A stretch of DNA of 63,894 nt, counting the filler, from Collodictyon triciliatum (taxonomy: Eukaryota): NCBI GenBank assembly GCA_043381765.1. It is 5 parts of 5 records of this genome, joined end to end, with 100 filler letters (N's around TTAATTAATTAA, not from the genome) between each part and the next. Parts side by side here need not be neighbours in the genome. Positions count along the whole stretch, not along the records: positions 18,500 to 35,378 come from JBHJMP010001368.1; 4 more parts are not named here. One strand, given 5' to 3'. Positions 29,809-34,949 of this stretch are shown piece after piece. The position numbers were made by a program, and so were the translations under genes. Each line of letters opens with the position of its first letter. The first letter of the stretch is position 1. The notes beneath the pieces were generated by a model. It had not been told where the DNA came from and made no database searches. It saw only the letters and a program-made list of their open reading frames with translations.

Positions 29809-32800
29809 ATGGCTGATAAGGCCAGCAATCACACAAAGCAGTCGCATCCCGCACAGCGCACAGCATCCGGGATCCCTGACATGCCTTTTCTCTGGCGAAG
29901 GCTCAAAAATCCCAAGGAACAAATAAAAGTATAAAAAAAAAAAAAAAAAAGAAGTTGAGCGGGGCAAACAGAGAGAAACAAACCCGCATCCCTTTGAAGT
30001 GCGGCAGTCGGTTTGTAAAGCTTTCTGGGATCGTTGTCCGCTCATGTTGTCTGCTCGTGTAGAACATTCTCTGCGGCCATCTGACAAAAAGTCTCTTCGG
30101 GCAGAGCTTCTCTGTCGACTCAATTTGCCTGTGAATAAACGCTTCTATTGTCTCCGTTTGTGACACAACGCGAGTTCTCTAAACCACTCCCTAGCCTTCG
30201 AGCTTAAACTGTGATAAAAAAAAGACGAAAAAAATACATATACTCGGCGGTATATCCTGTGTAAATAATGACGCATCGCTAGTATCCAAGAGCTTTCCTT
30301 ACATATGTATAATAAGTACCAAAGGTTCTGTGACCTTGTGGATTTTTTTCTTCGGTACAGAACTAACACGAAAAAAAAAAAAGGAATGTTTATGTGAGTT
30401 ATTAGAGTTGTATAGAAACATATCAAACTCTAGCTGACACCAAGAGACTTTCTTGCGGGAAACTATTGCTTTGTCCTCATTAAAACATCAGCAAACCCTT
30501 CTTTTTTTGAAAAAAATGATAAATTACACGATTTCACAAGAGTAGGGTCTACAAGATGAGCTCTCAATCTGAACAACCCTTGCTTTCTATTGTTAAGGAT
30601 GCTGTTGCCTCAGAGGGAGGTATTATTACCATTTTACATAAATAACTAAGCTTCCCTGTTTTCTGAAACAATGAAAGTAAATTTAATTTTATTTCATAGC
30701 TTGTTTTATTGTTTTTTCCTTTATTCAACTCAAAATAACTGTTATTGTTGTTAATGTGAACACTTGAAGGGGATGCCGGATTTATTGTTCCGTGTGGGCG
30801 TCATCCCTACTCGGCATTAATAGAGAACCTCATCGAGCAAAATACAGACGACTATTTTTTGCATGTCCCATTTATGAGCCCGGATGATGCTGCGTTCATC
30901 AAAACGGTTGAAATAACTAAAAACATTCATATAAACAGTCCAATCAGATATATGTGTATATATTACGATTAAATATGCACAATAAATTAGTCATGTCCTG
31001 GTCATGCGAGACAAATACCAAACGCTGACATTGCAAACGTGCGAAGGAATGCAAATCCTAGCGTAAAAAATATTTCATCTTGATACATCCAAGTGATGTG
31101 TTTTAGGAATTAGATAACCTTGTTAAAAATGTATTTTGGCTTGCGTGTAAAAGAATTTTCAACATCGCTCTGTAGTTGCGCTTTTTGTTGGTGACAATAG
31201 GATTCCCACCTGCAAGTATGATTCCGGATCTGGCTGAGCTGGTTAAAGTCTGTGAATTATTGTCCATACCTCTGGTGGTGGATAATAGATATGGTTTGAA
31301 ACTCTCATATTTGAATTATTTTTTTAAATAATTCATTGGTTTCGAACATACAGCGTCATCGAAAACTGTGATGGTTTACTAATAAAAGGAGTTTTTTACA
31401 GGTTTAATGGGTTGCTATTTTTCCCCTTTGAAATTCGGTGCATCAATCGTGATTTCTTCCGCGCCTGATGGCCTAAATGTTCGCGGATATTATGGTAAAA
31501 TATGAGGGATAAGCCTTTTTTAAAAGGAAAGGAATTTTTCATATTGGAATACGTCATTAATATATCTATCTTAGCGATATATAAAAAAAATTCCCTGCTT
31601 CCATTGAATCGAATAAGAGGAAAAACAATATATATAAATTATAAAACAGTTATCGTCTCAAATCGAAAGAAAGAACTAGGACGATGGAGCACTCGTTTTC
31701 TCGAAAAATCTATTATAGTTGAGGTAACAAAACTGTATATTTTATTTTGAAATCAACTAATGTATTCAAATACGATTGATTATATAATTTCAGAATTAAA
31801 ATAGGATACTGAAGGGGAGCCTCACCCACACCCACAATGGAGACTTAATTCATCATTCAAAGGGAAAGCAGAATTGTTGACACAATACCTGAATACAAAT
31901 CGGTTTTCAATCTGGATTAGGTTTGGGGACAAGAAAAAATCAAAGAACGAAGTCGTATTATTGAATATAGTCCAGTACATTCTATGTAACATTATTTATT
32001 GCTTATCATTATTCAAATTTTATAAATTAATAGCGCAATTCAAAACCCATCACACCCATATCATGGACACTACAAAAAATATGCGTGCAACATGGATAAT
32101 GTGACGTCGCTGTCTTTCCTTGTTCTCAATAAGGACTCTGTTAAAGAAGTCTGCATTAATTTCGAACTTTCAGAAGTTTTTTCTTGGAGGAGACAATCTC
32201 AGACAATTTCTGTCCGACTCCTTTTCACTATATGGCCTAAATGTGTGAATTTATATTGATATGTACTCTTTATTTCCATAGAACGTCTCAAGATTTATTC
32301 AGATCAATAACAGTAGGCTCAGCTCGACAACGGTAACAGCTTCTATATGATTTTTTTTTTAAAAAAAAAAAAGCGATTACAATTCGAACCTAATCATCAT
32401 CACAATTTTAAAATGAAACTTTTACAGATCACCATCTCTTCAAACCCCTCCGAATCTCCTGCATCACCACTAATACCATGGGCTAAATCTGAACTCGCAT
32501 TCGTCATAACGGTTGACTTAGGATTTGAACCAGTAGAGGAAATCATAAAATTCATCGAAGATATGTTGGAATCAAATTCCCGCACTGGTAAGCTTTCAAC
32601 TGTTATACGGATTAATGTCCCCTTAATTATTTGAATAGGGAATTCATGTGCATTTCTATATAGAGCCTAGGCTAGGTGTAGTTCCTCTTAATTATCCACA
32701 ATACTCGTTTGAAGAGAAAAAACTTACTCCATATGGATATTTTTATGCTGTTCCAGAATTTATATTGGAAAGTGGAGGTATTTCAAAAAAAATCTACCAG

Positions 32801-34949
32801 ATTTTTTTATTACATTCAAGTTGTGCAAGATATTTGAAGCTTTGGCTTTGGTTCCCCAGTTCACTAACATATTTGTAGTCTCTTGAGAGATAATTTTTTG
32901 TCTCTGGTTTGATTGATTGATTGATTGATTTCTTTGGACTCGAAATAGCCATCCTTCGTGATGTACCCGTTGCATATATGACCTGGGGAAATCTAAATGC
33001 AGAACGAGATAATGTTATAGTTATCTGTCACGCCTTGACAGGATCTGGTATATCATAATTCTCATATTTTCAATGTCGGTCATCTTTTAGGCCAACCAAA
33101 ATTTTCATAATAGCTCGCGCTGATTCGTGGTGGCCAGGAGTAATCGGGGATGACCTCTGTTTTGATACGTCTCGATATTTTGTTATTTGCCTCAATGTAT
33201 AATGGAAATTTCAATAGAGCTTTTGTTTTTCTTGCGGTTATGTTACATTTTATACTATTTTGGTACCAATATTCTATTATTCGCCATATATATCTTGGAG
33301 AAAATTAAGCGAAATACGTGCTGATTTTAGATTATCGGCTCTTGCTATGGAACAGTCTCTCCGATATCAGTAAATCCAGATACCCAAGAACCTTACAAAT
33401 ATGCGTTCCCTGTTTGTACTATCAGAGATAATGTCGGACTTCATCGCCAAGTCCTCGATGCTATTGGTATCAAGAGTATTCAAGTGAGCTTTGCGACGTT
33501 AATCGCATAAGCATCAGTGCGAAAAAATTATTTATCAGTAATCACACATGGCAATAATTATTTATTTCTCTTAAGTTGGTATTAGGTGGTTCTCTAGGCG
33601 GCATGCAATCCATAGAATGGGGATTTTTTGGAGAAGATTATGTTCATGCTGTTTGTGTCATAGCTTCTTGTTTTCGTCACTCCGCATGGTTCGTAACACT
33701 GCACAAAATAAACTTATTGCGTTACATATTATCACTCGTCTGCCCTATGTCTGGTTGATTTAAATATTATAAAAAATACAGACTATACCACGAACAAAAG
33801 TACTGGACTTTTGTCAGCAGATTTTTTATGCTTTAAATAGGAGCATCGCTTGGAACGATGTTCAACGAAACGCTATATTCACAGATCCGAAGTGGTCTGG
33901 AGGGGATTATACCGCAGTGGACCCACCTCTGATGGTTTGTATCTTAAAAGCCTTTGTGTTTTTTAAGTTCTCTTTTATCTCTTTTATCTCTTTTATCTCT
34001 TTTATCTCTTTTATCTCTTTTATCTCTTTTATCTCTTTTATCTCTTTTATCTCTTTTATCTCTTTTATTCGAATAGCCCTTGAAAATGGCCTTGAATGTC
34101 CCCCTCTTTTTTTTTCTTCTATGTCGAAGGGGTTGTGTACTGCTCGAAAAATCGCAACAATATCGTACAGATCGTACGAATCATTCCAAGAACGCTACGG
34201 AAGAGGTATATCTTTATGTGGCCTATTCATGCGAACGGCAATCACGCTCACCCATTCAATAACCGCATCAAGATAATCTTACCTCGTCCGTCCCTCCTCT
34301 CCAGACAGCCTTATTCTCGATGGAAACATACTTGCAACATCAAGGTGTTGTTTTCAACCAGGTATGTCATCCTTGTTTTATTCCATCCGCTGGCTTGGTG
34401 CCAAGTCTTCTATCGTGCACCATGAAGCATCAACCATTCTTCTTGCAATCACACTTTGAATCATAAGCCTACTTTGACATTCGGCAGAGATTCGATGCAA
34501 ATTGCTATGTGCGTATTCTGCAAATGTGTGACTCTCATGACGTTGGGCGGAATCGTGGTGGTTGTGAAGCAGCCCTGGGTAGTCTGAAACAGCCGGTATT
34601 GAATATATTCTGTTAACCACAAGCATTCCTCATGGTTCTAGGTGTTTAAAACTAAGAGAAAATATGAACGGCATAGAACCATGTATATGCTATTCAAAAT
34701 CTTTGCTGCGGCTACCCTTGGTCATGTCTATGATAAAGAAGTAAATATGCCACCCAGGTTCTCATCGTCGCAGTCGACACAGACGTTCTTTATCCACTGA
34801 AAGAGCAAGAGGAATACGCCCGACTCGTGCCGAATGCGACGTTGAAGGTTCTGCATTCGCCACATGGGCACGATGCATTTCTCCTGGACACCCCGCAGGT
34901 CACACAAATGATCACAGAGTGGTGGAGGTCCAACACCGCGGATTTGTGA
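29809..34949 (+). CDS. MET2: Fusion: degenerate Met17/MetY-like (Cys/Met-metabolism PLP-enzyme fold) domain + homoserine O-acetyltransferase (Met2/MetX)
   Basis: N-half: [92 protein letters not shown]-half: [91 protein letters not shown]. Every junction I traced is phase-consistent, including the domain join (intron 32588-32663). Stop TGA 34947-34949. The start codon is tentative. Confidence 0.85.
33969..34068. repeat. Intronic (TCTTTTATC)n 9-mer repeat
   Basis: Perfect 9-nt unit within a Met2-domain intron. Confidence 0.93.

Follow-up and report, generated by a model that had tools for sequence, protein, structure and literature searches.

A predicted in-frame fusion of a disabled Met17/MetY-like domain to Met2/MetX homoserine O-acetyltransferase in Collodictyon triciliatum

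Met2 (MetX in bacteria) is the homoserine O-acetyltransferase that carries out the committed step when methionine is made by direct sulfhydrylation. To our knowledge, the regulation of Met2 at the protein level is poorly known in microbial eukaryotes. Parallels come from the cysteine synthase complex, where, according to two sources, an inactive sulfhydrylase acts as regulator of the acetyltransferase (PMC10243980, PMC5889488), and from spinach, where the second source describes an inactive paralogue, SoCSaseLP, that binds and inhibits an active isoform (PMC5889488). For fungal Met17, a pyridoxal phosphate (PLP) lysine and a substrate arginine are given as key residues in a further source, with Lys207 of Candida Met15 being the Schiff-base residue and Arg415 facing the ligand carboxyl (PMC11568248). 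Here, we describe a gene of Collodictyon triciliatum, carried on a 63,894-nucleotide stretch of DNA made of five joined parts of assembly GCA_043381765.1 (hereafter, the window), in which a Met17/MetY-like domain that appears to have lost both of these residues is very probably joined in frame to a complete Met2.

The gene lies on the plus strand and is intron-rich and eukaryotic in character, with 20 exons running from 30546 to a TGA stop at 34947-34949 and separated by 19 GT-AG introns of 66-195 nucleotides, and its spliced chain is a single open frame of 709 residues (Table 1). An initial annotation of the window had read a Met17/MetY-like domain continuing across one intron into a complete Met2, and each part of that description is borne out: a profile built from 78 bacterial MetY proteins recognises the front half (E 1.9e-14 with the 709-residue model), one built from 56 bacterial MetX proteins gives the back half 448 bits over positions 13-345 of 347, and the same join is seen in a transcript-derived protein of Diphylleia rotans. 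At the junction, an exon ending in ACT G at 32587 meets one beginning AG CCT, giving a stop-free Thr-Glu-Pro within the open chain. By a splice matrix applied to 30500-35000, the junction donor ranks 5th among 228 GT sites, and its acceptor takes 30th place among 200 AG sites. The splice across the junction in Collodictyon is predicted from homology, not from reads. The same annotation had counted more than 20 introns, a number reached only if two doubtful upstream exons are real.

Similarity of the front half to Met17/MetY (~24% identity) is remote. Both genome-wide family searches overlooked it, a Pfam search of 18 open frames did not find PF01053 in it, and only one of six front exons compared singly with TIGR01326 gave a match, at E 0.04. 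In the assembled chain, the similarity is beyond chance: an earlier, 718-residue model scored 41.2 bits against the MetY profile, while shuffled sequences reached at most 2.7 bits (408 of 1000 shuffles reported), and hhalign aligned the front half with MetY over 306 columns at a probability of 98.6. The first Atlas match was also PF01053 (0.77), which we treat as a lead only.

Most active-site residues of its relatives are missing from this domain. The position of the Schiff-base lysine, retained in all 78 bacterial MetY proteins, is occupied by an aspartate, and the nearest following lysine lies 16 residues beyond it. The substrate arginine, whose motif as searched is matched by 73 of the same 78 proteins, is likewise replaced, and no arginine occurs anywhere in the aligned C-terminal strand of either the Collodictyon front half or the Diphylleia protein. 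In the MAFFT and hhalign alignments, the SGQAA phosphate motif reads CGRHP and the LYGG motif of the stacking tyrosine reads FMSPD, in a register that is less sure, this region being left unaligned by hmmalign. Among the active-site motifs, the aspartate of DNT alone is kept. About 44 residues are deleted relative to Met17, and around the LLLQGLETL motif the helix is either gone or no longer recognisable. Because both the PLP lysine and the substrate arginine are lost, the front half is, as judged from its sequence, a pseudoenzyme that cannot be a working sulfhydrylase.

The Met2 half, in contrast to this disabled domain, is complete, with HALTG and GGSLGG motifs and a Ser-Asp-His catalytic triad. 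It is the sole MetX locus found in the genome (contig C1368), and the gene therefore likely carries an essential step. Its position among Met2 proteins in the tree described below, together with its being the only MetX found, suggests that it is specific for homoserine and acetyl-CoA. The Diphylleia orthologue scores 332.7 against NF001209 (cut-off 331) and 376 against TIGR01392 (cut-off 500), and its best match in the PDB is the cephalosporin acetyltransferase 2VAT, followed by homoserine acetyltransferases.

This orthologue, P0325 (EukProt EP00002_Diphylleia_rotans_P037866), is an uncharacterised Trinity open reading frame of 509 residues, recovered by a profile search over 1.84 billion representative sequences. 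Among the 150 matches listed, it is by far the nearest to the window Met2 (bit score 440 vs 349 for the rest), and no other bears a MetY-like extension. It carries a MetY-like tail, a linker some 12 residues longer than that of the window gene and Met2 in a single frame, and aligns with the window protein across the junction, with 199 of 352 residues identical in Met2 (57%) and 26 of 117 in the tail (22%). The two tails score 113 together, while the 78 MetY tails reach at most 72 and 2000 shuffles at most 40, and they pair with a support of 98 in a tree. By its sequence, then, the join is conserved, and in Diphylleia it is transcript-derived. Pfam and NCBIfam recognise only the MetX half of P0325. 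A single-sequence fold of the whole protein was unusable (predicted local distance difference test score, pLDDT, 31); folded with MetY rows, the tail reached a pLDDT of 74, and Foldseek returned Fub7, sulfhydrylases and methionine gamma-lyases as its top matches (best E 4.4e-4). The tail model would thus fit the small domain of the MetY family, a compatibility that is partly circular given the MetY alignment used. Atlas gave nothing usable for the tail. A 727-residue protein, P0342, was considered as a second fusion and rejected, its N-terminus being unrelated; metagenome scans with P0325 and exon 10 gave 152 and 596 pattern matches and no relatives, and a word search with the last exon matched two of 11 candidates, both standalone.

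The exon chain itself was built from GT-AG sites and homology, with one donor corrected with the Diphylleia protein: the end of exon 8 at 32175, used in the 718-residue model, was replaced by 32148, which of six donors compared gave the best fit to that protein. A coding model trained on the other exons scored the modelled frame best in eight of the ten front exons and all ten introns negative; exon 8 was scored, negatively, in its longer 32175 form. For exon 9, the coding model preferred an alternative frame, which was dropped because it meets a stop, and because the frame chosen here is the one that the Diphylleia protein matches. At the 5' end of the gene, the simplest start is provisionally the in-frame ATG at 30556. 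Upstream of 30546, no similarity to the Met17 N-terminal arm with its Y-x-R motif was detected. The start at 29809 put forward in the initial annotation could not be confirmed: the exon pair beginning there competes with others in a set of 184 open two-exon chains and six one-exon chains, and a search of 29809-30159 for MetY N-terminal similarity, a Pfam match or frame preference found none of them. The surrounding 29680-30180 comprises a pair of GC-rich blocks (0.50-0.59) on either side of a poly-A tract, with open frames on both strands, including 30178-29906 (91 residues) and 30144-29782 (121 residues) on the minus strand, and without a Pfam match; upstream exons, a promoter and a small opposite-strand gene are all candidates for it.

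Table 1. Coordinates, counted along the window, of the predicted fusion gene and its features.
Feature	Position	Strand	Remarks
Met17/MetY-like PLP-fold domain, predicted disabled	30546-32587	+	10 exons, ~336 residues
Front-domain exons 1-5	30546-30619, 30770-30906, 30991-31062, 31176-31293, 31402-31494	+	
Front-domain exons 6-10	31650-31723, 31805-31920, 32034-32148, 32282-32332, 32428-32587	+	
Asp130, kept Asp of DNT motif	31281-31283	+	
Asp156 (GAT) at place of PLP Schiff-base lysine	31467-31469	+	HSATK to SSAPD, within one exon
Thr311 (ACG) at place of substrate-binding arginine	32509-32511	+	MAFFT and hhalign alignments; region left unaligned by hmmalign
Junction intron	32588-32663	+	Phase 1, 76 nucleotides, GTAAGC...TATAG; joins front domain to Met2
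Met2/MetX homoserine O-acetyltransferase domain	32664-34949	+	10 exons, stop TGA
Met2 exons 1-5	32664-32777, 32949-33047, 33114-33196, 33331-33483, 33576-33688	+	
Met2 exons 6-10	33841-33934, 34130-34205, 34273-34361, 34488-34595, 34758-34949	+	
Ser492, catalytic nucleophile (GGSLGG)	33591-33593	+	Column invariant in 42 MetX-family rows
Asp655, catalytic triad	34782-34784	+	
His684, catalytic triad (HGHD)	34869-34871	+	
Simplest start	ATG 30556	+	In frame
Possible upstream exons, unverified	29809-29928, 30008-30159	+	Splice in frame into 30546; GC-rich

Elsewhere in the genome, eight loci of the Met17 family were read, five of which keep the PLP lysine. An intact Met17 is encoded on contig C1191 (L021:2794-4729) in five exons; its 451-residue product scores 787 bits against the MetY profile and is 72% identical to the best bacterial MetY, and the G+C content of its exons looks much higher than in the window gene. 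The three loci without the lysine are the window gene, C1271 and C6462. C1271 (L005:3593-1381, minus strand; also L020) holds a full-length Met17-like gene (194 bits against MetY) that lacks both the PLP lysine (CTNAH) and the substrate arginine and retains the N-terminal arm motif, and C6462 (L102, minus strand) a cystathionine beta-lyase-like gene in which the PLP lysine is replaced (YTETA). At one splice in C1271 the plain GT donor leads into a TGA, and a donor 18 bases further on keeps the frame; coiled-coil exons on the minus strand (L005:1367-174) start within ~100 bases of the end of its Met17-like domain, either spliced on or forming a separate gene. One intron position, EGG/G in phase 1, matches exactly between the window gene, the intact Met17 and C1271 in all three alignment modes.

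Fusions of the two enzymes are themselves not new. In bacteria, metX lies downstream of metY in 65 of 80 MetY loci and is fused to it in none of them; among the 120 best, as listed, of 224 long MetY proteins, 23 contain a MetX-like region, substantial in 19 and partial in 4, and MetA is present in 8. Named clusters among them come from Ktedonobacterales, with MetX first (P0149-P0158), and Myxococcota, with MetY first (P0169), and from the eukaryote Gymnodinium smaydae, with MetA first (P0202). The PLP lysine is present in all 23 MetY-MetX fusions, and P0169, P0172 and P0149 exceed the TIGR01326 cut-off. P0149-P0158, P0169, P0172, P0202 and P0237, fusions with an intact MetY, are annotated as single enzymes only, and no account of them came up in the open-access literature searched. 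A search for long MetX proteins with an oomycete query found no PF01053 in the 120 listed of 435, most of which were fusions of MetX with homoserine dehydrogenase, an architecture very common in Anaeromyxobacter-like bacteria (P0003-P0122). By the yardstick of the initial annotation, for which an architecture common in databases would not be new, this part of the novelty is lowered: the bare architecture recurs in databases, and what is new is its disabled version, seen here only in this genome and, as far as the arginine loss visible there shows, in Diphylleia. Within the open-access literature searched, we found no description of a Met17/MetY-Met2/MetX fusion, intact or dead, or of a lysine-less Met17, and PMC2700814 contains no such fusion.

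Separate phylogenies of the two halves, as the initial annotation had envisaged, placed Met2 and left the front half too diverged to place. In a Met2 tree of 37 rows, hand-picked from ~300 after an earlier tree had been seen, the window and Diphylleia proteins form a sister pair (100/100) within an eight-member group (96/88) that includes Syssomonas and Penicillium, adjoining two Rhodothermales, and an approximately unbiased (AU) test rejects their grouping with the nearest bacterial MetY-MetX fusions, P0169 and P0172 (p 2.35e-5). The Met2 half thus appears to sit with standalone eukaryotic Met2 proteins, and, because of this rejection, the metY-metX operon-like ancestor first suggested for the gene is not supported. 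For the front half, the intact row closest to it is the Met17 of the same genome, at a support of 0. We infer that, before Collodictyon and Diphylleia split, a second copy of the host Met17 arose by duplication and was independently fused to a Met2 of vertical descent.

In the predicted single chain, a Met17-derived domain without its PLP lysine precedes a Met2 whose catalytic triad is intact. O-acetylhomoserine is likely supplied to the cell by the Met2 half and likely turned into homocysteine by the separate intact Met17 (C1191). For the disabled domain, the likely role is non-catalytic, that of a regulator or scaffold built into the Met2 protein. Retention of a stop-free, ten-exon domain in two lineages implies selection. 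By analogy with inactive sulfhydrylases, we prefer this scheme as a whole, while holding it tentatively and at slightly less than an even chance. A broader version, in which the lineage steers its sulfur amino-acid flux with cofactor-less transsulfuration copies (three lysine-less, alongside five intact paralogues) and the fused copy is the homocysteine branch's covalent equivalent of the cysteine synthase complex, gating or positioning homoserine acetyltransferase, is speculative and would be doubtful on present grounds.

Several observations weigh against the preferred interpretation, in its account of either origin or function. The front-half tree is saturated, with a branch of 10 changes per column, and an origin of this half from the bacterial fusions gives an AU p of 0.318, neither origin being rejected; intron sharing is thin, as the second position common to these Met17 genes lies only within two columns and a third, shared in the earlier model, was lost with the corrected one. 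P0325 begins inside the dead domain and covers only its last ~120 residues, which leaves the lysine position outside it. The ligand-binding residues that a sensor could have reused are lost, the cysteine synthase precedent involves another PLP fold and a reversible complex, and the divergence of the tail (22%) relative to Met2 (57%) also fits a decaying passenger. Such a passenger, either the remnant of a bifunctional Met17-Met2 fusion or a duplicate fused by loss of a stop, and kept solely for folding and staying in frame ahead of an essential Met2, is an unlikely explanation and still one to be taken seriously, given the very fast divergence from Diphylleia, the deletions, the loss of all active-site motifs save one aspartate and the repeated rise of intact bifunctional fusions elsewhere. 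However, a useless leader of 336 residues and ten exons could be shed through a new start, for which the in-frame ATG at 32563 in exon 10, in principle able to begin a Met2-only product, is at hand, and both lineages have kept the tail, with features in common that were not observed in MetY.

A more specific role, which we regard as rather improbable, would have the dead domain join the tetramer of the intact Met17, tether Met2 to it and channel O-acetylhomoserine between what are consecutive steps of the pathway. The presence of lysine-less copies at three of the eight family loci suggests mixed oligomers, but the N-terminal arm and the LLLQGLETL helix, which we take to be oligomer-building parts of Met17, are missing or unrecognisable in the window gene as read here, and the C1271 paralogue, which keeps both, is the better candidate for docking. 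That inactive paralogues can bind active ones is known from spinach SoCSaseLP (PMC5889488). It is very improbable that two adjacent genes have been joined by a chance splice: although a retained junction intron would stop the frame 15 codons past the end of the domain, the donor is strong, the join recurs in the transcript-derived protein of Diphylleia, and Met2 has no open start of its own in the 76-nucleotide gap, where the sole in-frame ATG runs into a stop. Scarcely credible, finally, is a bifunctional enzyme descended from a bacterial metY-metX operon, the two-step activity that the initial annotation implied. The frequent downstream position of metX and the intact fusions of Ktedonobacterales and Myxococcota speak for it, but no lysine lies within 16 residues of the PLP position, the substrate arginine is absent, Met2 groups with eukaryotic standalone enzymes and an intact Met17 is present elsewhere in the genome.

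A Met2 that carries its own downstream enzyme in disabled form, retained by two representatives of one deep branch of the eukaryotes, offers a test case for the conversion of a dead fold into a regulator or tether; if the domain is only a relic, its value falls to that of a lineage marker. As neither Pfam nor NCBIfam detects the domain in Diphylleia, such fusions escape architecture surveys.

Around the gene, the window also contains, on the plus strand at 25617-27950, a 778-codon, coiled-coil-like open frame that forms part of an upstream gene, with short exons continuing to ~29414, and an array of CAT/CAC-rich simple repeats at 29500-29720. Intron 16 contains a 7-base array (33975-34070), and the contig ends on both sides of an N gap carry T-rich and TCAAAAA arrays (35110-35580). 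Beyond these, an exon on the plus strand at 35821-36000 looks like dynein heavy chain, a short piece without a Pfam match.

Among known systems, the closest to the window gene is Diphylleia P0325, which likewise has a MetY-like tail, a linker and a 57% identical Met2 in one frame and lacks the substrate arginine, and which differs in beginning inside the dead domain and in its longer linker. The bacterial MetY-MetX fusions also unite the two domains in a single chain, the order being the same in P0169 and P0172, but their MetY is intact and their MetX is not the sister of the window Met2. The MetA-MetY protein of Gymnodinium smaydae (P0202) is likewise a eukaryotic fusion of a homoserine acyltransferase and a sulfhydrylase, built, however, from the unrelated MetA family, in the opposite order and with an intact MetY. 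Compared with Met17/Met15/MetY proteins (TIGR01326, PF01053; PDB 8OVH, 2CB1), the window front half is homologous over ~306 columns and differs in its missing catalytic residues, its ~44 fewer residues and an N-terminal arm that was not found upstream of 30546, whereas the back half has the same full domain and triad as Met2/MetX (TIGR01392, NF001209) and differs in the added N-terminal pseudoenzyme domain. The cysteine synthase complex and SoCSaseLP (PMC10243980, PMC5889488) similarly pair an acetyltransferase with an inactive downstream sulfhydrylase; there, the folds are unrelated to those of the window protein and the association is non-covalent and reversible, whereas in Collodictyon the link would be covalent, the partner permanently disabled and its role tentatively, by analogy, a regulatory or scaffolding one.

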